Of a DNA stretch of 38,706 bases, positions 1 through 36,610 are shown in pieces. The stretch's first letter is position 1; each line of letters begins with the position of its first letter. The position numbers and the translations under genes are program-made. The notes under the pieces are model-generated. The model was given only the letters and a program-made list of their open reading frames with translations, was not told the origin of the DNA and did no database searches. The DNA is from Herbinix sp. (lineage in GTDB: Bacteria > Bacillota > Clostridia > Lachnospirales > Lachnospiraceae), in the NCBI GenBank assembly GCA_029239365.1, contig JAQZBA010000001.1, forward strand, positions 1 to 38,706, in the 5' to 3' direction.

Positions 1-334
1 CATAGCCCGCTGATAACTTCAGTCCCTTCTCTAGGATTAGCTTCTCCAACTGCCTCATAGCCGGTCCAACGGAACCACCACAGGTGATTAGGGCAAATAC
101 ATAGGAATTATTCTTCATAGACAATGTTTTAATAAATTGCTCCATAAGCTTAGGAATGCTAATATAATAGACGGGAAACACAAATCCTATCCGTCCTTCC
201 GGCGACTCCTTAAGCTCTTTGATACTTGCGCTATGAATTCGGATCACTTCACAGTCCGGTATCCGGCTTGCTAGATCCTTGGCTACCTTCAGTGAATTAC
301 CGGTACCGGTAAAATAATAAATTGTCGTCTTCAT
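1..334 (-). CDS. EFR1-family flavodoxin/ferredoxin protein, N-terminal part (runs off the window start)
   Basis: Not in the ORF track. Manual translation from ATG at 334 (GGAGGTG RBS upstream) gives MKTTIYYFTGTGNSLKVAKDLA...IGFVFPVYYISIPKLMEQFI...YVFALITCGG. This is the flavodoxin-like N-terminus typical of EFR1 proteins; the frame stays open to base 1. Confidence 0.8.
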   Translation of the reverse strand, partial: MKTTIYYFTGTGNSLKVAKDLASRIPDCEVIRIHSASIKELKESPEGRIGFVFPVYYISIPKLMEQFIKTLSMKNNSYVFALITCGGSVGPAMRQLEKLILEKGLKLSAGY

Positions 335-362
335 CCTTCACCTCCAACTAAATCATTATCTT

Positions 363-1085
363 CTAGATATTCTTTTGATTGGGTAAATTATTTACGAAGG
401 TAAGCAGTTCATCAAAGTTTCCCTGCTGATAGATGGAACTATCCAAATCCTCAGGACAGATCAGGCAATCCTTCAGAAGATACGTGTCCATGCCTAAATT
501 AGCTGCACACATGTCCTCTTTCACATCATTTCCGATCATAATACATTCCTGCGCTTCTTTCCCAAGATTCTTAAGTACCTCTAAATAATAATCCATCTTT
601 GGTTTACAATAAGTACTATTATTATAGGTCGTAATCAAGTCAAAATCCTCCGGATCAAGTCCTGCCCAGTTCAGTCTGGTATGGGTGGCCACGGGAGGGA
701 ACAGTGGATTCGTTGCTAATGCGAGGGTATAGCCCTTCTTCTTCAGAATCCGAATACATTCCTTCGCATGGGGATGTGTCAAGGTCGTACTCTTCGCTTG
801 ATGAAATTCATTCCGATAGAATTCGTCAAACAGTGGCTCTAACTCCTTTGCTTTCTCACCCATTACTGAGCAGAAGACGATCCAGAAACGTTCTTCATTC
901 GTCATGGTTCCATCATTTTCTATCATTGCTTTCGTTCCTACCCACACTGCTTTCGTTAGCTCCTTGGGATCATAACCATAAGGGGCGAATTTGGTAGCCA
1001 ATGCTTTAAAGTAGGAATCTAAGAAAAGTTCTTGATCAGGCATAGGAAGCAGGGTTCCATCCAAGTCAAAAATGCAAGTATTCAT
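363..1085 (-). CDS. HAD-superfamily hydrolase
   Basis: Motif I FDLDGTLL, motif II ATNP, Lys in CKP, motif IV MIGNDVKEDM. Confidence 0.9.
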   Translation of the reverse strand: MNTCIFDLDGTLLPMPDQELFLDSYFKALATKFAPYGYDPKELTKAVWVGTKAMIENDGTMTNEERFWIVFCSVMGEKAKELEPLFDEFYRNEFHQAKSTTLTHPHAKECIRILKKKGYTLALATNPLFPPVATHTRLNWAGLDPEDFDLITTYNNSTYCKPKMDYYLEVLKNLGKEAQECIMIGNDVKEDMCAANLGMDTYLLKDCLICPEDLDSSIYQQGNFDELLTFVNNLPNQKNI

Positions 1086-1214
1086 ATGCTCTTCCTTTCA
1101 TAATACCGTGATACGGTTCATACTGATTTTTCCAGTTATATCTCCTACATACTATCAAATTCGACCTCGATATTCAATCCTTTTTCTATAAGAATTCTTA
1201 TGAAAACCTTAGTC

Positions 1215-2471
1215 TTAGATATAAAAATATAAAGACTCAATTAGATATTCCTGCCCATGCTCGTTGGCGCACTTAAGTAAATGATTTTTTACTGTCTGTA
1301 TGGAGGCTTTACCAAAGGTATAGTCCTCCATCAGCTTTTCATAGCGCTTCTTCTCAGCAGCGGTACAATCCTTACTCAAATACCCCCATACATGCTGGGC
1401 GGCATTGGTCTGAGCTCCTGTATTTTCAGGCATCCGGTATGCCCTCTCAATAATCTCATAGAATTCCTTAGCAACCCGATTCTCTTTCTCCTTTAGCAGC
1501 TCCCGGATTGCTTGATAAGCCTTCGCATCCTTACTTAATACATAATACTTATATCTGGCCCATTCCGACTCCAACTTCATTGCTGTGGAATTCTTCAGGA
1601 CAACATGCTTACACTTAATTGCAGACAGATTCTTATCCTTGACTTCCAGCATAATGTCCGGATCAACACTCTTCAACTGTTGATAATATTCGATAAATGT
1701 CGAGATATTGATGGTATCAGAATGGCTCCCCGGTTTCGCTTGGTCCTTCTGCTGAGAATAATGAATCTTTTGCTTTCCGTCCACCTCACTCCAAGTATGG
1801 TTACACTGAGTAATCCACTGGTAATCCGATAACTCTTCTACCGGAGGATTAATATGATGATGGAGATTGTCAAAAATAACTGGCGCACCGCAGACCTTTG
1901 AAATCCGAAGTACCTCGCTGATATTAAAGCATCGTTCATCATTTTCGATCACAAGTCGTCGCTTTACTTCCTCCGGAAGTAGTCCATACTCCCGAATAAA
2001 ACGATTCGCAGCTTCGGTTCTATTATCATATACTCCGCCAATGTGTAGAATTAGCTTATTTGACTGATCTACACCCAAGGCATCCAGTAATCTTGCATGG
2101 TAGATCAATTCCTGTACGGCCTTATCTATCACCTCTTGATGATTCGAATTGAGTACTGTATATTGTCCGGGATGCATGGATACCCGAAGCCCAGCCTTCT
2201 TAATGATAGTTCCGAGCTCCTCGAACACTTCCCTGTAATCCTTCCACCAGTGTACCTTGTTCACCGGATGGGATCCAAAAGGAATCAGCTCTGAGCTGAT
2301 TCGAAACAAATGGATATCGTTTCTACTATTATAATCCAATAGAACCTTCAGTGCTTCCAAGTTCTTAAGAATCAACTTTCGTAGATTCTCATCGGTTGCA
2401 TTTTTCAGTGTACAGCCGGAGATGGAAGTACCCGGAACACCAATCGCTAAGCATGCATAGCCAATCGCCAT
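1215..2471 (-). CDS. uvsE: UV DNA damage endonuclease UvsE/UvdE with C-terminal DUF1722-like extension
   Basis: IGYAC, FRISSELIPF, RVSMHPGQYTVLNS, LHIGG, LVIENDE, FDNLHH, HYSQ, HSD and DIMLEVKDK motifs. About 120 extra C-terminal residues contain NAAQHVWGY. AGGAGG RBS. Confidence 0.92.
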   Translation of the reverse strand: MAIGYACLAIGVPGTSISGCTLKNATDENLRKLILKNLEALKVLLDYNSRNDIHLFRISSELIPFGSHPVNKVHWWKDYREVFEELGTIIKKAGLRVSMHPGQYTVLNSNHQEVIDKAVQELIYHARLLDALGVDQSNKLILHIGGVYDNRTEAANRFIREYGLLPEEVKRRLVIENDERCFNISEVLRISKVCGAPVIFDNLHHHINPPVEELSDYQWITQCNHTWSEVDGKQKIHYSQQKDQAKPGSHSDTINISTFIEYYQQLKSVDPDIMLEVKDKNLSAIKCKHVVLKNSTAMKLESEWARYKYYVLSKDAKAYQAIRELLKEKENRVAKEFYEIIERAYRMPENTGAQTNAAQHVWGYLSKDCTAAEKKRYEKLMEDYTFGKASIQTVKNHLLKCANEHGQEYLIESLYFYI

Positions 2472-2593
2472 AAGCTCCTCCTTTGACAGTTTGAACTCAC
2501 ATCATTCTGCTAATTCAAGTATTGCCATAAATTGAAACCTTATTGAATAACATAATTTTACTACGATACGAACCCGATATGCTATGACATCAC

Positions 2594-3889
2594 TTAACAA
2601 TCATATAACAGCAGCTGCTTCTGCCACTCTGTTTGAGGCTCATAATCCTCCAACGATATACTTCCTGCCTCTAGTAGGATACTTTTCTTAAGGACCTTAA
2701 TCTCTTCTTCTCCCAGTAGCGGATAGATCTTAGCATACTCCTCAGGATAGAAACATTCCTCTAACAGAAGAGTAAGATCGATAATACTTCTGACCTGCTC
2801 GAGAATTAAGGTAACTTTAGCAGCAAGTGTAGCTTGTTGATTCAGCAACAATATGAATTCTCTAAGCTTATCATCCTCCATCGGCGAACCCTCATAGAAT
2901 TCCTCGAGTATAACCCAATCATGATCAACTACAATAAAGAATCGTTCCAAGGTCTTCAGATTGACATTATTCCATAGCCTCTCTGTAAGCTCCGGTATAG
3001 TAACCCTTAGATAACTACTTTGTTCCTCATTAAGTTCAAGCTCCTCCATGAGCTGTGATAAAGACTCCTTAAGCAAGCTTCTTACCTCTTCCTTGTTCCT
3101 ACCGGATAGTATATTTTGTAACTCTACAAGGTCGGACTTTGTTAGGGTAAGCACTGTATAATCCTTTTTCAACATTACACAGCCTATGGCATTGATCAAG
3201 ACCAATTCACAGAGATTAATCAACATATGTTCTGCCTCGCGATCGAAGCAGTGAATCAACCGATTAATAGGATCCGCTTCGAATTTGTTAAGGATCGAAT
3301 CTTCCATGCATAATAAGCTTAGGTATCGCAGAATAAATTCCACACCCAAGTATTCTTCCATTGGAACCAGGAGGGGATAATCAATACTACCAGGAATATC
3401 ATGTGACCCGTATTCTATATTATAATCGTGAAAAAACTTCACAATTCCCTCAAATATAGAATCCTGGTAAGCGATGCTGGCCAATTTACGATCATTCCTT
3501 TGAAGCTGCTCCATCACCAGCATTGCTTCCTTTTTATTTTTTGCAGTTACATCTAATCCACGATAAAACAATACTGACATAGTCTCATTCCTTAACTGCT
3601 CCAGTATCGTCTGTAGATCAGGTATCGTTTTCAGATATGCTCCGATTAAATAAGTAATCGACTGTAATAGTTCCTGTGCTTTCTCAATCGGAACTGAACT
3701 ACTCTCACCATTCGTATAGCGTTCAACTTCCTTCGCCATAAGATCCAGTAGACTAAATTGAAGCTTTTCTATCTGCTCCGGTGTCATTAGATGGTTATTC
3801 GCTACTTCCTGAAGTATTGATTGAAAATAATAACCCTGGTTAAGTGTATTCATATCGATACCCAAATTACTTTTACTTAACGAATTCAT
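2594..3889 (-). CDS. DUF6179-family protein of unknown function
   Basis: 431 aa acidic, helical-looking protein; ERYTNGESSSVPIEKAQELLQSITYLIG and IDYPL segments recalled as DUF6179. GGGAGG RBS, 31 bp downstream of the DUF6323 gene. Confidence 0.7.
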   Translation of the reverse strand: MNSLSKSNLGIDMNTLNQGYYFQSILQEVANNHLMTPEQIEKLQFSLLDLMAKEVERYTNGESSSVPIEKAQELLQSITYLIGAYLKTIPDLQTILEQLRNETMSVLFYRGLDVTAKNKKEAMLVMEQLQRNDRKLASIAYQDSIFEGIVKFFHDYNIEYGSHDIPGSIDYPLLVPMEEYLGVEFILRYLSLLCMEDSILNKFEADPINRLIHCFDREAEHMLINLCELVLINAIGCVMLKKDYTVLTLTKSDLVELQNILSGRNKEEVRSLLKESLSQLMEELELNEEQSSYLRVTIPELTERLWNNVNLKTLERFFIVVDHDWVILEEFYEGSPMEDDKLREFILLLNQQATLAAKVTLILEQVRSIIDLTLLLEECFYPEEYAKIYPLLGEEEIKVLKKSILLEAGSISLEDYEPQTEWQKQLLLYDC

Positions 3890-3920
3890 TCTAAGACCTC
3901 CCTTCTCATTTCACTATCAA

Positions 3921-4427
3921 TTAATATTTTTTCTCATCCCAATCCAGAAAATCCGTATAATCATCTTCATAGCCATTCACTTTTTGATAATCTTTTGTTC
4001 TATAGCGAATATCCCTACAATAATTCTCAAGCATGCTAGATCGTAAAAATTCGATAGATCCATGACACACCTCATCATAGTATAGCTTCATGAGCCCAAT
4101 CAGCTCATCATCGGATATCTCCTCCAGTGATTCCTTCTTAAAATAATAAAAACATTCCTGAAGCTCATTGAGGATTTCCACATAATCCTGTTGGTTAACA
4201 TAAACAGAATCTGCAAACTCCATAATAAGCTTTTGTATGATTCCACCGCCAAATTCAATTCGGCCGGTCTCTTCCAATACCATCTTACGATTTTCAACCA
4301 GCTCCAGTATCTCCTGCTCTGACAGCTTCAGACCAAAACGTGAAGTATAATCATTACAATCCCTAATAATAGTAACAGTCTGTTGATTCATAAGCATAAC
4401 AGGCAAAAACATAAATTGATTGTTCAT
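3921..4427 (-). CDS. DUF6323-family protein of unknown function
   Basis: NDYTSRFGLKLSE, GRIEFGGGIIQKLIMEFADS and FYYFKKESLEEISDDELI segments recalled as DUF6323. Confidence 0.7.
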   Translation of the reverse strand: MNNQFMFLPVMLMNQQTVTIIRDCNDYTSRFGLKLSEQEILELVENRKMVLEETGRIEFGGGIIQKLIMEFADSVYVNQQDYVEILNELQECFYYFKKESLEEISDDELIGLMKLYYDEVCHGSIEFLRSSMLENYCRDIRYRTKDYQKVNGYEDDYTDFLDWDEKKY

Positions 4428-4466
4428 AAGCTAATATCCTTTCTGAAAATAATTTTGAAAAGGGGG

Positions 4467-4495
4467 TTGACAATCATAGATATTTGTGCTAATAT
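4467..4495 (+). promoter_or_regulatory. Strong sigmaA-type promoter facing away from DUF6323 and converging on its promoter
   Basis: TTGACA (4467-4472), 17 bp spacer, TAATAT (4490-4495); TGTG extended -10 at 4485-4488; AT-rich UP-like tract at 4446-4461. No plus-strand CDS follows. Confidence 0.7.
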
Positions 4496-4542
4496 TATAT
4501 TGGAAAATTATATATAATGCATTAAATAGCACAATTAATTAT

Positions 4543-4571
4543 ATTATATACTTCCATTGCTCTAAAGTCAA
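4543..4571 (-). promoter_or_regulatory. sigmaA-type promoter for DUF6323-DUF6179
   Basis: Minus strand TTGACT (4571-4566), 17 bp spacer, TATAAT (4548-4543). Confidence 0.75.
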
Positions 4572-4639
4572 CATCATTTTAAGAACAATAAGTTTGCTAT
4601 AGCAAATACATAAATAATTGCCCATGCAGGGCAAACCTT

Positions 4640-4662
4640 AAAGCCAGCATAGCTGGCTTTTT
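4640..4662 (+). terminator. Intrinsic terminator, possibly bidirectional
   Basis: AAAGCCAGC-ATA-GCTGGCTTTTT. The longer T-run is on the plus strand; it could also end the minus-strand M20 operon. Confidence 0.75.
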
Positions 4663-4735
4663 AGATTCCCTATCTGTAACTTATGATTCATTGTTGACTT
4701 TATTATCTGGAGAGATACTCTCATCTCCTATTATC

Positions 4736-6178
4736 TTAGCACGTCTTCATTAAGCTAATATAAAACTCAACAACCTTGATTAAGCTTGCTATCTTAATTC
4801 TCTCATTATGCCCATGGATTAAGCCTCGTTCCTCCTTGCTTAATTCCATTGCAGAAAATCGGTATACCCGGTCGGTAATTCGGCAATAATGTCTGGAATC
4901 ACTGCAAGCCATCATCAGATAAGGCGAAACAATGGCTTCCGGCCAAGAATTTTGGATTACCTGTACCAGCTTCTTGTATTCCTTACAATCAGTATCTGAA
5001 CAGGGAGACGGATTTACACCATTGACTACCTTAACCTCGATCTGATCATTCGCGATTACCTTCTTTAGGTAGCTCTGTGCTCCTTCCATTGTATCCACAC
5101 CTAACAGTCTCAGATTCGCACCTGCGCTTACCTTGGTTGGTAATACATTAATCGTATTGCTTCCTTCCATCATCGTTAACGCACAGGTAGTTCTCATCAT
5201 TGCATTCAATTCACCACCGGAACTCTTGCCAATTAGATTAAGTAATGGAGAGAAGCACCATAGATTGGCAAATAGAATACGATAGGCAAAGCTACTGTGT
5301 CTGCCCAGTGTATCAAACATGGATCTGACCGGTTTGGTTAATTGAAAATGAAACGGCTTCCTCTCAATTGCAAGTATCGCCTCTGAAATGCTTCCTAGCA
5401 TGGAATGCATCGGAGGTGTAGAGGCATGCCCACCCTTACCCTCTAGAGATATTGAGACATTCGTTATTCCTTTTTCGGCAATACCAATTAATGCAGCCGA
5501 TTTCTTAACCCCAGGGAACACCTTATCAACAACTGCACCGCCCTCATCCAGTACGAGTGCAGGCTTAATCCCCCTATTTTCCAATACTTTTACGATTTCG
5601 GGACAGCTGTCTCCAAAGACTTCTTCCTCACCGGAAAAAGCAAAATAAATGTCCTGTTCCGGTAGAAATTTATCAAAAATCAGATGCTCGGCAGCTTCCA
5701 GAATTCCGCAAAGGGTGCTCTTCGTATCCAACGTACCTCTTCCCCAGAGCGTTCCATTCTCAATGATACCTTCAAAAGCTGGCTTTAACCAGCCACTTTC
5801 ATCAGCAGGTACAACATCATAATGTGACATCAGCACCGTAGGCTGGTCCGAAGCTATCCCCTTAAGGCGATATAAGATTCCGGTTTTTCCTATATATTCT
5901 CTGCTGCAGTTCTTATGTATGAGAGGATATCGCTCCTCTAAGAGTGCTTTAAACCGGGTAAATTCATCCCAGTCGGTTAAGCTCTCATCCATGTTTGATA
6001 TGGTGCGACAGCGGATCATCTCTGCCATATTATCTGTGATCTTATTATGATCAAGGGAATAGGTCACTTCTTCTGTCACTGCTTGTGATATTGGTCGTAT
6101 TAACCATGCACGCATCAGGATAATAAGTAATAATATTCCTACGAGTGCCAACAGGATAAAGCCTATCGATTGAAGCAT
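4736..6178 (-). CDS. M20-family metallopeptidase/amidohydrolase (carboxypeptidase S/PM20D1-like) with N-terminal membrane anchor
   Basis: [33 protein letters not shown] and IHGHNER motifs; hydrophobic N-terminus. Confidence 0.9.
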
Positions 6179-6191
6179 TCGTTCCTCCTAC

Positions 6192-6851
6192 TTAAATTTT
6201 ATTCTTACTATATAGAATCCTCGCTGCTCCAATCGAGATCAAAGCACCGACCGGAACTAAGATACCCACAGAACCTGACAGGGAGGGTACACAAATAAAT
6301 AGAATAATCATAAATATCATAGGCGCCAGGGATATCTTCCAGTTCTTGCTTACATACACCACTGCAAGGCCGCCAAACAAAGAAGGGAGTATATTTTCAA
6401 AGGCTGGCTTCAGAGTAGGTGAATTAATAATGGGAGCGAGTTGAGCAAGTAGTAAGACACCGACTGCAATAACGATGGTAGTAACAATGGAGGAGGTTGC
6501 AACCGCTATGGTTGATATTACCTCTCCCTCCTCCGTACCGGATTTAACCTTCGCATTTTCCATCGCACTTAAGGCACTTGGAACCTTAAGATTAGTGAGA
6601 TTACCCGTTACAAAAGCCAGATATGAACCTCCTGTGCCAAGCATCGGAGTAAAGGTAATTACCTCAATTGTCCCAACCGTCCAGAAGATCGGTGCTACGC
6701 CCAGCAATCCTTTAAACACCGGAGTAAATCCCGGCCAGGCATCATAGTAGACACAGATTGCAATCGGAACGCATAGAAGTAATACAATTGCAGTCCAGAT
6801 CCATATCCTCCCGTAAAAATGTGACATTTCATCATAAGATTTCTGTTTCAT
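6192..6851 (-). CDS. Multi-pass membrane protein, partner of DUF5058
   Basis: Start reassigned to ATG 6851 (MKQKSYDE), which follows AGGAGG/AGAGG just after the DUF5058 stop. Contains YLAFVTGNLTNLKVP and several hydrophobic helices. Confidence 0.75.
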   Translation of the reverse strand: MKQKSYDEMSHFYGRIWIWTAIVLLLCVPIAICVYYDAWPGFTPVFKGLLGVAPIFWTVGTIEVITFTPMLGTGGSYLAFVTGNLTNLKVPSALSAMENAKVKSGTEEGEVISTIAVATSSIVTTIVIAVGVLLLAQLAPIINSPTLKPAFENILPSLFGGLAVVYVSKNWKISLAPMIFMIILFICVPSLSGSVGILVPVGALISIGAARILYSKNKI

Positions 6852-6865
6852 GTCCTCTTTCCTCC

Positions 6866-7588
6866 TTATCCTATGATTGGTGTAATCAAGGTTGCGAAAG
6901 CCATAGCTCCGAGCATACTGATCGGCAAGGCATAATTCTGTAACCAATTCATCTTACACTTCTTAATTAATAAACCACATATCCCCATAAGTAAGGCCGA
7001 AAATAAAAGAACAAAGAAGGGTATCCATCCTGCAAGACCACCTCTGATGTCTGCAAATACCATACCTAAGAAAGCAGATATCATTCCTAAAAACATAGCA
7101 GTGATAAATAAATCGCCCCATTTACTATCCTTGTTCTTAATTGAGAGCAGACCCTTCTGAATTCGTTTTAAAAGAATTGGGACTAATACAATACTGGGAA
7201 GTATTCCAACGGTCATTACCCAGGCAATCGCCGAATATACTTTCGGATCCGTTATGGTATCAGAGAGTGATACCTGCAAGGCATTCGCCGTCGTTGTAGC
7301 CGCCGGTAGCTCATATGTAATTGCTCCGATTACACTAAGTCGTATCCATGGAAGAGGTAAACCCAAGAATTTTGATAAGGTCACCACACCTAACAGGATT
7401 GAAACCGCAGGTGCAATTGTAAAGATTGAAGTAGAAATAATTGTCTTTCTAACCTGTCTCATATCCATGCCGATGGCCTTAGCACGCCGGTAGGAACGTA
7501 TGAGGAAGAAGAAAGATTGAGCGATAACAAATAGAATAACAATTACTGCTACCGCATACAGAAAACTACTATTCGGGTCAAAATTCAT
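6866..7588 (-). CDS. DUF5058-family membrane protein
   Basis: Start reassigned to ATG 7588 (AAGGAG RBS). LGLPLPWIRLSVIGAITYELPAA signature and several TM segments. Confidence 0.8.
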   Translation of the reverse strand: MNFDPNSSFLYAVAVIVILFVIAQSFFFLIRSYRRAKAIGMDMRQVRKTIISTSIFTIAPAVSILLGVVTLSKFLGLPLPWIRLSVIGAITYELPAATTTANALQVSLSDTITDPKVYSAIAWVMTVGILPSIVLVPILLKRIQKGLLSIKNKDSKWGDLFITAMFLGMISAFLGMVFADIRGGLAGWIPFFVLLFSALLMGICGLLIKKCKMNWLQNYALPISMLGAMAFATLITPIIG

Positions 7589-7712
7589 GGTGTTTACTCC
7601 TTTTAAGATATTATATTTTATAACAATTCTTCTATAACTTAATAGCTTTGTTATCAAGCTCTTACTATGTTTCATTGTTCCTTGCTATTATTTTCTTGAT
7701 TAATAAACTTCA

Positions 7713-8939
7713 TTATTTAACATTGATATGATTCTCAAGAGATTGGTTCTCAGGAGCTTGATTCTCAGGAGCTTGATTCTCCTGAGTATGACTCTCAATA
7801 GTACGGCTTCTATGGGTATGGTTCTCATGAATATGGTTTTCATGAGTATGACTCTCATGGGCATGGTTGTGATGTGTGTCCGGGGTATGGTTATGACTGT
7901 GAGTTAATGACTCATGGTTATGAGTATGACTATGCTCGCCGACAATCTCCGGATTATGGGTATGAATATGATGACCATCCGAATGATTGTGTTTATGCTC
8001 ATGCATCGCCGCCTCGTGGATATGGGAGTGATAATGCACCTCCGATATTGCAAAATAACAGCCAATCAGCATAATACCAAGCGCTATCAGGAACTGTAGG
8101 GATATTCCCTCCCGGAAAATGATCCAGGAAATAATCACTCCGATAAAGGGGGCCGTCGCATAGAAGGTACTGGTTCTTGCTGCACCCAACGATCTCTGAG
8201 CCTTTATATAACAATAGATACTTAGGCCATATGCTACAAAGCCAAGAAGTAAGGTACCTAGAATCGATGGAAGATGCCTACTGTATTGTCCCATCACGAT
8301 GGAAATCAATAAAGCACCTGTTCCTGATCCAATTCCCTTGATGATAACAATTTGAAGTGGATCCTTGATCGAAAGCTTTCTGGTACAATTATTCTCAAGG
8401 CCCCACAGACAACAAGCAAGAAGAACGAATACTGAGCCCAAGGAAAAGGATAAGCTTTCTCTTCCTTCCAGTGTAAGAACAATACTTGATAAACTGATAA
8501 AGCCAATCGCAATCCACATCCTCTTTCCGATCGCTTCCTTAAATACCAAAAGAGCCAACAAGGAGGTAGCAACAATCTCAAAATTATTCAATAACGATAC
8601 ATTAGCAGGCTTGGTCAATGTTAATCCAAGCATAAGAAGAATTGGTGCTCCTATATCCAGTATAATCATTGCTATCACAAAGGGTAGCTCTTGTCTAGTC
8701 AGCTTCGCTTCCTTCTGATCCTTTTTTCTACTCTTATAAATGTTACGTACAAGTAGCATCCCAAAGCCTGCACCCAGATACAAAAGAGCTGCAATCATAG
8801 TGGGAGGTATCTCCTGTAATAATAATTTTGATAAAGGCGAGCTGATACCATAGAGCGCCGCCGCCATTATTGCAGTTAAAGCAGCACCTATATTAACCAA
8901 TTGTCTTTCAGGTAATTGTTTTTGATTTTTGCTTTTCAT
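7713..8939 (-). CDS. DMT/EamA-family transporter with long His-rich C-terminal tail
   Basis: Two EamA-like repeats (YGISSPLSKLLL, VSLLNNFEIVAT, LWGLENNCTR, AQRSLGAARTS), then about 100 aa rich in His. Confidence 0.85.
   Translation of the reverse strand: MKSKNQKQLPERQLVNIGAALTAIMAAALYGISSPLSKLLLQEIPPTMIAALLYLGAGFGMLLVRNIYKSRKKDQKEAKLTRQELPFVIAMIILDIGAPILLMLGLTLTKPANVSLLNNFEIVATSLLALLVFKEAIGKRMWIAIGFISLSSIVLTLEGRESLSFSLGSVFVLLACCLWGLENNCTRKLSIKDPLQIVIIKGIGSGTGALLISIVMGQYSRHLPSILGTLLLGFVAYGLSIYCYIKAQRSLGAARTSTFYATAPFIGVIISWIIFREGISLQFLIALGIMLIGCYFAISEVHYHSHIHEAAMHEHKHNHSDGHHIHTHNPEIVGEHSHTHNHESLTHSHNHTPDTHHNHAHESHTHENHIHENHTHRSRTIESHTQENQAPENQAPENQSLENHINVK
7725..7859 (-). repeat. Degenerate 15-bp tandem repeat, about 9 units, encoding xE(N/S)(H/Q)x pentapeptides
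   Basis: HESHT HENHI HENHT HRSRT IESHT QENQA PENQA PENQS LENHI; near-identical DNA units ttg(g/a)ttctcaggagc. Confidence 0.85.
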
Positions 8940-30853: not shown

Positions 30854-31312
30854 CTATCTATCGCTTATCGCCATTTCATAATTCTTGATGTGCTCCTCGA
30901 CTGATATCTTACTACACAACTCCGCGATCAGGTCAAATGGGATATCCTTAGGATTTTTGAATCGAATACAACTTTTTCCCATATCAAGCTTGGCAGTTAC
31001 TCTTTTGGCATATTCCTTACGGAACCAATCTTCTATTTCATGGCTTCCATATAAGCCCATGTGATATAAGGCAATATAATTCTTTTGAGCTGCAAGTGAT
31101 AGGAAAGGGAGTGGTTCTCCCTTCTGAGCATGGTATCCATTTGGATAGAGCGATAATGGTACGACATATCCTATCATACCGTAGGATATTTGCTCGTCGA
31201 AGCCGTCAGGCAGATTTGTGAGAATTATTTCTCTTAACTTTGAAACAGCTTCCTTTTTATCCTCAGGTAATGCTTCTATATATTCCTCTGGGGTCTTAGA
31301 TTCACTATTCAT
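30854..31312 (-). CDS. DUF1801 (YdhG-like) domain protein
   Basis: EEYIEALPEDKKEAVSKLREII, SYGMIGY, AAQKNYIALY and DMGKSCIRFK. Confidence 0.85.
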   Translation of the reverse strand: MNSESKTPEEYIEALPEDKKEAVSKLREIILTNLPDGFDEQISYGMIGYVVPLSLYPNGYHAQKGEPLPFLSLAAQKNYIALYHMGLYGSHEIEDWFRKEYAKRVTAKLDMGKSCIRFKNPKDIPFDLIAELCSKISVEEHIKNYEMAISDR

Positions 31313-31387
31313 AATACACTCCTTTCTGATTATTCTTGTGTTATTTATCCATTATAGCATTATACTTACAGGAGGGTAATTTTATAT

Positions 31388-31423
31388 AAAAATGCACCCA
31401 TTCATATGAAAATGAGTGCATTT
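31388..31423 (-). terminator. Intrinsic terminator after the SRPBCC gene
   Basis: Minus strand AAATGCACTCATT-loop-AATGGGTGCATTTTT. Confidence 0.7.
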
Positions 31424-31443
31424 AACCTTACTTTTCCATAAAG

Positions 31444-31860
31444 TTATTTTTCAGCATATCGTTTAAAATTATCTAAAATAGACTGCCAGCCTGCCTCCTG
31501 CATCTCGATGCTATTTTCACTCTCAGCTTCAAAGGTTTCAACTACTTTTGTTTTCTCATCTTCACTGGTAAAAGTAATCTTAACTGTTCTTGTATCCCCT
31601 AAAGTGTAAGCTATCGTCTTATGTAGAAGCACTTCATCATAAACACCGGAAAAATCAAAACCGAAACTACCATCTTTGGCTTCCATTCTAGAGAGAAACG
31701 TACCTCCAACTTTTAAATCATTTTCTGCCGCAGTAGTGTGCCAGTCCTCTGAGGCATTGTTCCATAATTTAATGTGCTCCGGTTCAGTCCAATACCTCCA
31801 CACTTTCTCAATCGGTGCATCAACTGTTGCTTTTATAGTTATCTTTTGATTATTACCCAT
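31444..31860 (-). CDS. SRPBCC/AHSA1-family protein
   Basis: APIEKVWRYWTEPEHIKLW, DLKVGG...MEAKDGSFGFDF and QEAGWQSILDNF. Confidence 0.9.
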   Translation of the reverse strand: MGNNQKITIKATVDAPIEKVWRYWTEPEHIKLWNNASEDWHTTAAENDLKVGGTFLSRMEAKDGSFGFDFSGVYDEVLLHKTIAYTLGDTRTVKITFTSEDEKTKVVETFEAESENSIEMQEAGWQSILDNFKRYAEK

Positions 31861-31862
31861 AA

Positions 31863-32069
31863 TTAATTCTCCTCCTTTCTAAGAGATAGCCCCTCTTCTT
31901 CCAGGATTTTTGTTAGTATTCCTAATGCCTTAGGACCAAATCCGTGAAGAGCAAGTAATTCTTTCTCAGTAAATTGAGTTAACTGTTCGACTGTTTCAAT
32001 CCCTACATTGATCAATGCCCTATATGCAGGTTGACCTATCTTTATAGTTTCTATCAAGTGTTGCAGCAT
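31863..32069 (-). CDS. Small helix-hairpin-helix protein resembling the RNA polymerase alpha C-terminal domain
   Basis: Start reassigned to ATG 32069 (AAGGTG RBS). PAYRALINVGIETVEQLTQFTEKELLALHGFGPKAL parallels alpha-CTD RxxNCLKRAGINTVxELxxxTExELxKVRNLGxKSL. Confidence 0.75.
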   Translation of the reverse strand: MLQHLIETIKIGQPAYRALINVGIETVEQLTQFTEKELLALHGFGPKALGILTKILEEEGLSLRKEEN

Positions 32070-32122
32070 AATCACCTTCTAATATTAAATTTAAATTGAT
32101 TTGTGTATCGATATCTAATTTT

Positions 32123-32150
32123 ATTATACTATATAATTATATTTCGTCAA
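32123..32150 (-). promoter_or_regulatory. Candidate sigmaA promoter for the alphaCTD-like/SRPBCC pair
   Basis: TTGACG (32150-32145), 16 bp spacer, TATAAT (32128-32123). Confidence 0.55.
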
Positions 32151-32286
32151 TATTAAATATTATCTGATAATTACATCGACAATAGTAATATAGTCGAAAT
32201 ATTATCCAATCCAAACATCCATTTTTACTTGATTGGATTGCCGGTTATTACAATATGATATTGAATTTAACTCATTAGATATATCC

Positions 32287-32763
32287 TTATTTTATTGACA
32301 CATAGATATCAATTTCATTATCAACACTATCCGGTTTGTATCTTTCATCCCAAATTTCGAAATCAAATCCTGTCGGAATATTTCCGGTTTTCTGCATCCA
32401 GTTTTGATAAAGGAAGTCATAGGAACGCTGCATTTCAGATTCCATTCCCTGGTGAGTACACGTAACATAGTTTCCTTCCGGCACCTTATGAATTATCATA
32501 TCGACAGGTATATTGGCTGTATCTGTAACCTCATAACAGAGCATCTGGATATAGCGATCAACCCACGGATCAAAGTCTGGCTTCATCGGATAAATCTGCA
32601 AAAGTAATACATTAGGGTGTTTCTTATAAGAAAGCTCGTCCTTTTTTAATAACAACTTCTGATAAGTAGCTTTCCCGATACCGGAATTGAATTCTTCCAA
32701 GTTGGTTTCAATTTTATAACCTACGACAGTAAATCCAGATAATTTAACGTTTGTTGCTTTCAT
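32287..32763 (-). CDS. GyrI-like small-molecule-binding domain protein
   Basis: Start reassigned to ATG 32763 (AAGGAG RBS, ATGA overlap with the GNAT stop). VPEGNYVTCTHQG...YDFLYQNW...DFEIWDERY...IDIYVSIK. Confidence 0.85.
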   Translation of the reverse strand: MKATNVKLSGFTVVGYKIETNLEEFNSGIGKATYQKLLLKKDELSYKKHPNVLLLQIYPMKPDFDPWVDRYIQMLCYEVTDTANIPVDMIIHKVPEGNYVTCTHQGMESEMQRSYDFLYQNWMQKTGNIPTGFDFEIWDERYKPDSVDNEIDIYVSIK

Positions 32764-33344
32764 AAGCACTCTCCTTTCTTATACTGATCAATTCTTGCGG
32801 GAGGTTCCTTAACACTAATCCTCCATATCATATGATGCGATCCCTTTCCCCAGAAATCTCTCAAATAATACTTAGGATCACCAAATCTCTTACACCATAT
32901 TTTCTGTGCAATCTTATATCCACTGTCAAAGCATATTTCTTGGATTCCTTGATTATACAACTCCTTGAACAAAGAATCAAATAATAAAGAAGATACACCC
33001 TGCTTCTGATATTGGGGGTGTACAAACACAGTTCCTACTTCAAATAAATCCTTCATCTCATTATTAGTACACCGATTCAACAGTTCATTGGATAATCCAT
33101 ATTCGATTGATCCTATAATTTCATCATTATACTCTGCCAGAAGAAAGTAACGATCCCTTCCATTCGTTGAAAAATCCTGATTAATACATCTTCGTTTATC
33201 CAAAATTTCTTCCTCAAGAAGGTCGTTCATGGTTTGAAGTCCATTTGCATCAAATGTATCCTTCAACACAATTTCAAAGAACCCATGAATCAGATCTATT
33301 TCCTCTATTCTCGGCCTTCTAATCGCTATTTCATCCCTTTTCAT
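32760..33344 (-). CDS. GNAT-family N-acetyltransferase
   Basis: Acetyl-CoA binding motif VFVHPQYQKQGVSSLL and FDSGYKIAQKIW. Confidence 0.85.
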   Translation of the reverse strand: MKRDEIAIRRPRIEEIDLIHGFFEIVLKDTFDANGLQTMNDLLEEEILDKRRCINQDFSTNGRDRYFLLAEYNDEIIGSIEYGLSNELLNRCTNNEMKDLFEVGTVFVHPQYQKQGVSSLLFDSLFKELYNQGIQEICFDSGYKIAQKIWCKRFGDPKYYLRDFWGKGSHHMIWRISVKEPPARIDQYKKGECL

Positions 33345-33426
33345 AATAGAAAGGCTCCTTCCAGAAAGCTTTGTTCTACGTGATGATTATTATTCATGCT
33401 GAGAACATCCATTTAACCTTCATTAT

Positions 33427-33948
33427 TTAAAATTTATTGTAATGAAGCTTTTGATAAAGTAGTGTATCTTCTTCATACGGCTTTTTTTCTTCCGCAGGAT
33501 AGCCGATTGCAATGATACATTCCACACAATATTGCTCCGGAATCTCCAATACTTTTCTTATATATTCTTCGGCACTCTCCTGCTCCGTATGAAAACGTTC
33601 TCTCACTTGGATCCAACAAGAACCCAGATCTAGATCATGCGCCGTCAATTGTATAAAAGTTGATGCTATGGAAGCATCCTCAATCCATACATCACTCGCT
33701 TCCTTCTCTGCTATCACTACAATTGCGAAAGGAGCCTCTGCCAAAAAACGGGGACCGGGTTCTCTGCATAGCGAGAGCTTCTGAAGTAGAATTGTATCTG
33801 TGACGGCTATAAAATGCCAAGGTCTGATCGATCGTGATGATGGGGATTGCAACGCACTCTTAAGGATTAAAGCTATTTTCTCCTGTTCTATCTCCTTATT
33901 TTGATACTTTCTAATACTTCTTCTGGATTTTAAAAAATCAAATAACAT
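33427..33948 (-). CDS. Nitroreductase-family flavoprotein
   Basis: RRSIRKY, SPSSRSIRPWHF, DLGSCW and IAIGYP. Confidence 0.92.
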   Translation of the reverse strand: MLFDFLKSRRSIRKYQNKEIEQEKIALILKSALQSPSSRSIRPWHFIAVTDTILLQKLSLCREPGPRFLAEAPFAIVVIAEKEASDVWIEDASIASTFIQLTAHDLDLGSCWIQVRERFHTEQESAEEYIRKVLEIPEQYCVECIIAIGYPAEEKKPYEEDTLLYQKLHYNKF

Positions 33949-33973
33949 AAACTATCCCTCCTGTTTTTATTAC

Positions 33974-36610
<2,637 letters not shown>

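Follow-up and report, generated by a model that had tools for sequence, protein, structure and literature searches.

The closest described counterpart of the locus analysed here is the dual-promoter rifampicin alarm reported at the helD and pps genes of B. subtilis (Sudzinova et al. 2026, PMC12802891). According to the accessible portions of that paper, a stronger, fast-escaping antisense promoter silences both genes and low rifampicin relieves the silencing; the two start sites are 39 bp apart, and shortening this distance by 17 bp (to 22 bp) abolishes induction. Its authors searched for convergent sigmaA promoters at most 300 bp upstream of genes with a -10 to -10 spacing of 45–55 bp, described a 19-bp antisense spacer in both B. 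subtilis cases (the relevance of which is only speculated upon), and reported a greater need for initiating GTP at the antisense helD promoter, suggesting a link to sporulation (PMC12802891). A second system of interest is the rifamycin-associated element (RAE) of Actinobacteria, a 19-bp palindrome found before rgt, rph, rox, arr and helR whose mechanism is described as unknown in the consulted parts of the two reports (10.1101/2021.05.10.443488; PMC10719064). It led to the discovery of a new resistance gene, helR, and was, as far as the same texts go, not found in that study with the HelD clusters of Firmicutes. HelD/HelR and RbpA are themselves, in the accounts available, RNA-polymerase-binding proteins linked to rifampicin resistance.

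The window studied here, a stretch of 38,706 nucleotides from Herbinix sp. (assembly GCA_029239365.1), is a whole contig (JAQZBA010000001.1) that ends inside helD. Its minus strand encodes a DUF6323 protein (3921..4427, 168 aa, pI 4.4, Pfam PF19848, 160 bits against a cut-off of 30.6) and a DUF6179 protein (2594..3889, 431 aa, pI 4.6, Pfam PF19677, 251.6 bits against a cut-off of 25), both predicted to be all-helical. Upstream of the ribosome-binding site of the DUF6323 gene (4437..4443, minus strand, recognised from its sequence) two sigmaA-type promoters face each other. The sense promoter, TTGACT-17-TATAAT (4543..4571, minus strand), has no extended -10 and matches the consensus at 11 of 12 positions, while the opposing one, TTGACA-17-(TGTG-C)-TAATAT (4467..4495, plus strand), matches at 10 of 12 and carries TG before its -10 (the TGTG spans 4485-4488). 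An A/T tract (4446..4462, plus strand, 88% A+T) lies 5' of the antisense -35 and would be UP-element-like. Both promoters are found exactly where the preliminary description had placed them. The predicted starts, at about 4536 for the sense promoter and at G 4502 for the antisense one, are 35 nt apart inclusive, in agreement with the separation of about 35 nt it had proposed. The antisense promoter had also been said to serve no coding sequence, and indeed no plus-strand ORF reaching 70 aa begins between 4502 and the peptidase gene, and none of the three frames of the stretch after the antisense start has an ATG-started ORF of more than five codons. A hairpin followed by a T run (4640..4662, plus strand, -12.3 kcal/mol) is the predicted terminator of the antisense RNA, which would then be about 160 nt long; the hairpin probably has a double use, also terminating the upstream peptidase gene.

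By analogy with helD and pps, we consider this head-on pair to be probably a regulator-free switch that is turned on when rifamycin-type drugs stall promoter-bound RNA polymerase. As in B. subtilis, frequent firing of the antisense promoter would knock waiting polymerase off the consensus sense promoter. With little drug present, the busy antisense promoter would be the first to trap drug-bound enzyme, interference would stop and the operon would be read. The silencing of helD and pps by a stronger convergent promoter and its relief by rifampicin, which the preliminary description had invoked, match what the available text of PMC12802891 reports. Taken alone in one genome, the promoter pattern is weak evidence. 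The loose motif of that paper (PMC12802891) gives 180 matches in the whole genome, and strict pairs are no commoner at this gap than at others (three at a gap of 40-60, zero to four in each of nine other 20-nt gap windows), as one might expect of a chance match in A/T-rich DNA. Within positions 1-8000 the sense promoter is the best promoter match and the antisense one the joint second best. The other two strict pairs of this genome (C140 and C256), located before cell-wall hydrolase-like and peroxiredoxin-like genes as judged from translations read by eye, lack the conserved signature and were treated as chance.

It is because of conservation among the leaders of orthologues, and not because of single-genome counts, that we dismiss chance at the studied locus. 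We compared 24 distinct leaders, the window's own included, from DUF6323 orthologues at 52-72% identity; those close relatives that have a name are assigned to Herbinix, Mobilitalea or Anaerotaenia. Conservation in relatives had been asked for, and both promoters are kept in all 24, with unrelated spacers. The sense form across this set is TTGACn-17/18-TAnnnT. The antisense form is TTGACA-17-TGn-TAnnnT in every leader, its -10 varying only as TAnnnT and its 17-bp spacer holding throughout by the extended -10 reading. The -10 to -10 gap, 47 here, ranges from 43 to 49 among close orthologues and from 21 to 49 across the class. T/A runs resembling the 4446-4462 tract recur in most close orthologues, and 14 of the 24 leaders show a terminator-like hairpin in the antisense direction within the 110-240 nt available. 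A scan of 61 genus genomes with the face-to-face pattern returned 33 rows (32 places), against none for the reversed-pattern control; of the 32 places, 28 lie before DUF6323 or DUF6179 and two before small regulator genes, and at the last two no ORF was found. Conservation in every close leader, and a scan whose control was empty, refute a chance match, the probability of which we put at close to nil.

The same alignment bears on what the switch might sense. T followed by G is found at bases 6-7 past the antisense -10 in 23 of the 24 close leaders, and within this set the sense promoter shows no comparable start-site signature and no G at the same position. In B. subtilis, stringent control follows a rule of G versus A at the +1 position of promoters. 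The interference switch could therefore be tuned mainly to GTP, as part of the stringent response or of sporulation: when GTP falls, an antisense promoter that starts with G would weaken and free the A/T-starting sense promoter, drug sensing being a side effect. The initiating-GTP requirement and the sporulation link suggested for the antisense helD promoter in the accessible text (PMC12802891) point the same way, as does one DUF6323 leader of the class (L147), where the opposing promoter belongs to and drives a tRNA-Gly gene (L147:4259-4333) that replaces the blank antisense RNA. Tuning to GTP nevertheless leaves unexplained why the alternative element described below is common to rph and arr, which encode rifamycin-specific enzymes, and we regard it as unlikely.

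Class-wide, 40 loci were fetched, 39 of them with a leader. A fixed face-to-face rule recognises 20 of the 39 DUF leaders, against three of the genome's own 1,487 leaders, the studied locus among them, and 28 of the 39 have either the face-to-face form or a back-to-back one. A DUF6179 gene that comes first in its unit (L219/L242:1644-2912) carries the face-to-face pair, and loci with reversed gene order (L139, L159, L163 and L164) carry the back-to-back element, so that the switch heads the module in either gene order. In three copies from the class the gap is 21, 22 or 26 bp (L142, L123 and L127, respectively); the implied starts lie nearer to each other than the 22 bp at which B. subtilis lost induction, and the published model, as far as it is laid out in the available text, would not predict that such copies function.

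In copies with their own promoter region, an outward promoter tends to be present in any geometry, these short gaps included. This tendency, and a terminator that would define an RNA of about 160 nt, are what one would expect if the opposing promoter were a fixed damper or a source of a small RNA, keeping down the expression of two genes that are harmful or costly, with no inducible sensing. We disfavour this explanation because only the promoter elements are conserved and not the transcribed stretch. It is also at odds with the Rfam search, in which no family reached the cut-off (there was one chance match below it), with the back-to-back form, in which the RNA has no overlap with the mRNA at all, and with the sharing of the element with resistance genes. 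Altogether, a damper or small-RNA source seems to us quite unlikely, and an inducible interference switch remains our preferred reading.

The layout of the back-to-back element is constant: the -10 and -35 of the outward promoter are separated by 17 bp, a 3-bp G[ACT]C core follows, and then come the gene-facing -35 and -10, again with 17 bp between them. The two -35 boxes are thus 3 bp apart and the starts about 74 bp apart, and the gene-facing -35 is often a poor match. We propose that this poor gene-facing -35 would be activated by polymerase caught at the outward promoter; alternatively, induction might come from relief of occlusion. A hairpin lies 3' of the outward promoter in at least 11 of 29 back-to-back leaders, a count that is a floor because the script missed cases visible by eye. 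The core is near-palindromic and RAE is thought, in the sources at hand, to bind an unknown factor, which might suggest that a protein regulator binds the region and that the promoter-like sequences form its binding site or have no role of their own. What the face-to-face form conserves, though, is the -35, -10, extended -10 and start-site bases and nothing else, the spacers being free, and across the class no regulator gene accompanies the DUF6323-DUF6179 module; we consider control by such a protein very unlikely.

In a first set of comparisons, the back-to-back element was found before nine distant DUF6323 copies. Within the genus it also precedes the close helD orthologues (seven of the eight whose leader is available) and five rph genes that stand alone, in both cases without a face-to-face pair. 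The genus scan located it at 39 places (41 rows), with five for the control: 16 before DUF6323/DUF6179, seven before helD, five before rph, four before other ORFs and seven with no ORF. Since the genus pattern derives from these same genes, matrices were cross-trained. A matrix built only from 12 helD/rph leaders scored 13 or more in 19 of 58 DUF leaders, a level that no more than 0.4% of 1,487 controls attained. Conversely, a matrix from 18 DUF leaders only, for which 1,487 own-genome leaders gave a 99.5th percentile of 11.8 and a maximum of 20.9, scored 15-23 in six of eight class rph leaders (at least 69% identity) and in none of 18 distant rph-like or 30 class helD-like leaders. The arr gene was chosen as a test because it was absent from all training, and of 30 arr leaders sampled across the phylum, eight scored at least 13 with the DUF-only matrix. 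The back-to-back regular expression and column mask were set after viewing the DUF and helD/rph leaders, and prospective evidence is accordingly confined to arr and the other-family rph genes.

A metagenome scan with the helD/rph-type pattern found 118 loci in total: 64 in a helD cluster (seven distinct sites), 37 at rph (32 sites), two at arr (one site), one other and 14 with no ORF. By locus, the back-to-back leaders of helD, rph and arr in Bacillota are L048-L055, L079-L085, L255-L260, L429 and L442-L450. The element also precedes a SAM-dependent methyltransferase gene in two genomes, and likewise one for an ATC-hydrolase-like protein (L240:1859-2959, L203/L241, L239:2451-3026); both are candidate further members of the regulon. 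The literature search, with most subscription papers outside its reach, returned no paper describing such a back-to-back element upstream of resistance genes in Bacillota.

Several variants accompany these leaders. A second helD type (L057-L076) includes 13 leaders in which the two -35 positions overlap at a conserved AGTCTAGTAA core and are 6 bp closer to each other. This genome's own second-type helD (C355) keeps, by eye, the hairpin and has no promoter pair, the overlapping -35 variant having apparently been lost. A third spacing between outward and gene-facing promoters was seen by eye in a helD subgroup (L285, L286, L304 and L309), with an outward TTGACA promoter immediately followed by a hairpin. 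Distant rph-like genes (L086, L266-L268, L275, L276 and L278) have, again by eye, repeated TTTGAAATAT/ATATTTCAAA inverted sites over their promoters, often with a divergent gene, an arrangement that suggests repressor control instead. The face-to-face form, for its part, precedes only one of 30 class helD-like, none of 27 rph-like and none of 30 arr genes, so rare an occurrence that the tie to resistance genes runs mainly through the back-to-back architecture. The best full-length B. subtilis-type helD with a pair of its own in the class sample (L282) has the face-to-face form with a gap of 46. On a quick tree of the DUF copies, in which 26 of 55 branches are open, each promoter form needs 5-6 label changes, despite which each may have had one origin.

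The window itself holds two of the genes concerned. Its helD, the 5' end of which is lost at the contig end (36687..38706, minus strand), passes the NCBIfam HelD_BACSU cut-off and is directly followed by rph, encoding a rifamycin phosphotransferase (33974..36589, minus strand, NCBIfam NF041857, 1440 bits against a cut-off of 999); we predict that both belong to the same regulon as DUF6323-DUF6179. No contig overlapping the helD end of the window was found, leaving this genome's own helD leader unassembled. The preliminary description had proposed comparing that leader with the DUF6323 one; in the relatives, the close helD orthologues use the back-to-back architecture instead. On the minus strand at 30854-36589, rph is followed by genes for a nitroreductase, a GNAT acetyltransferase, and GyrI-like, SRPBCC and DUF1801 proteins, possibly a drug-response cluster. 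Elsewhere in this genome two genes pass the cut-off for the primary sigma factor RpoD (G000 C64:2156-2869 and C379:4747-5454), and rpoB was not found in this assembly, which is 81% complete. Among class genomes, DUF6323 is present in six of 17 with rph and 17 of 64 with helD, against 8-10% of the rest; of the nine whose rph is closest, six have it, compared with 38 of the 390 others. Kin are non-independent in both comparisons. The helD figure is a floor because the search missed this genome's own gene. A helD-like gene adjoins the DUF6323-DUF6179 module in only one of 75 loci.

As for the two proteins themselves, no publication naming DUF6323 or DUF6179 was found in the literature searched, which left most subscription papers out of reach. 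Of 399 class genomes, 47 have the DUF6323 family, in varied neighbourhoods; a profile search recovered 2,713 unnamed relatives of DUF6179, and the two are fused in L156, P0340 and P0414. In the window, genes for a UvdE endonuclease and a HAD hydrolase lie 3' of the module (363-2471, minus strand), as in many genus relatives and not class-wide. Full-length predicted models are confident (pLDDT 85 for DUF6323 and 91 for DUF6179). A Foldseek search with both found nothing at an E value of 0.001 or lower (which proves neither a new fold nor a function), the best Z values were 6.3 and 5.6, and the ESM Atlas yielded only DUF6323 itself and low-grade leads. Neither profile nor fold searches detected an ATPase domain in either protein.

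DUF6323-DUF6179 is likely to belong to a rifamycin/RNA-polymerase-inhibition regulon, to judge from leader sequences, through two interchangeable switches. Because its copies bear either the face-to-face switch or one common to helD, rph and arr, it probably constitutes a new defence module of Clostridia that is induced by antibiotics. On weaker grounds, we infer that the two acidic helical proteins act jointly as a resistance module. Perhaps they bind and rescue RNA polymerase, a role that we favour weakly, and with less than even confidence, over a second and distinctly less probable one, modification or binding of the drug; some other stress role is also less likely than polymerase rescue. 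It is possible, though less likely than not, that the whole represents a new resistance mechanism, in which a two-protein polymerase-rescue complex of new fold is governed by two regulator-free geometries, the published face-to-face one and an undescribed back-to-back one where trapped polymerase activates, the latter being the Bacillota counterpart of RAE. Two widespread, little-studied families of Clostridia, neither with a fold match, become testable as candidate rifamycin-resistance genes, and the swapping of geometries by the same genes opens regulator-free rifamycin sensing, a long-standing question, to short reporter constructs.

How far the locus follows the helD/pps alarm can be judged against the accessible parts of that paper. 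Shared are the convergent sigmaA promoters in the leader, the motif fit, a spacing of 47 within the 45–55 bp used there and the antisense extended -10 (all 24 close leaders here), along with an antisense G start and a downstream terminator, both only predicted at the DUF locus; the starts are a predicted 35 bp apart here versus 39 bp. It differs in its antisense spacer of 17 bp instead of 19, in belonging to Clostridia, in controlling two DUF proteins and in that its genes alternate with a back-to-back element absent from the paper's description as available. The earlier reading as an interference switch thus stands in its motif and geometry and gains a comparative tie to rifamycin-resistance genes, while the 17-bp spacer, the back-to-back helD leaders and the 21-26 bp gaps fit it less well. 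Among the 11,038 Table S3 rows listed in the supplement (PMC12802891), which carry no product names, we found no DUF names, genus names or either of two tried locus-tag prefixes; the authors' full locus list may hold such DUF loci.

With HelD/HelR and RbpA, going by the accounts consulted, the possible analogy is functional, namely drug-induced target protection; DUF6323 and DUF6179 differ from them in having no sequence or fold similarity that our searches found, and no ATPase domain. A search for literature on Clostridioides proteomics under rifamycin-type drugs with HelD retrieved nothing relevant. As described in the available texts, RAE is a cis element marking a set of rifamycin-resistance genes, and the back-to-back element does the same for helD, rph and arr of Bacillota, which makes it a candidate counterpart of RAE in that phylum and one that could be used, like RAE, for finding more resistance genes there. 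The likeness rests on the genes marked and not on the RAE sequence, and the window's own element is face-to-face and non-palindromic. Relative to these systems, the face-to-face mechanism is already published; what appears to be new, as far as sequence comparison can tell, is a conserved variant of it, a candidate resistance module under its control and a putative second sensing geometry.
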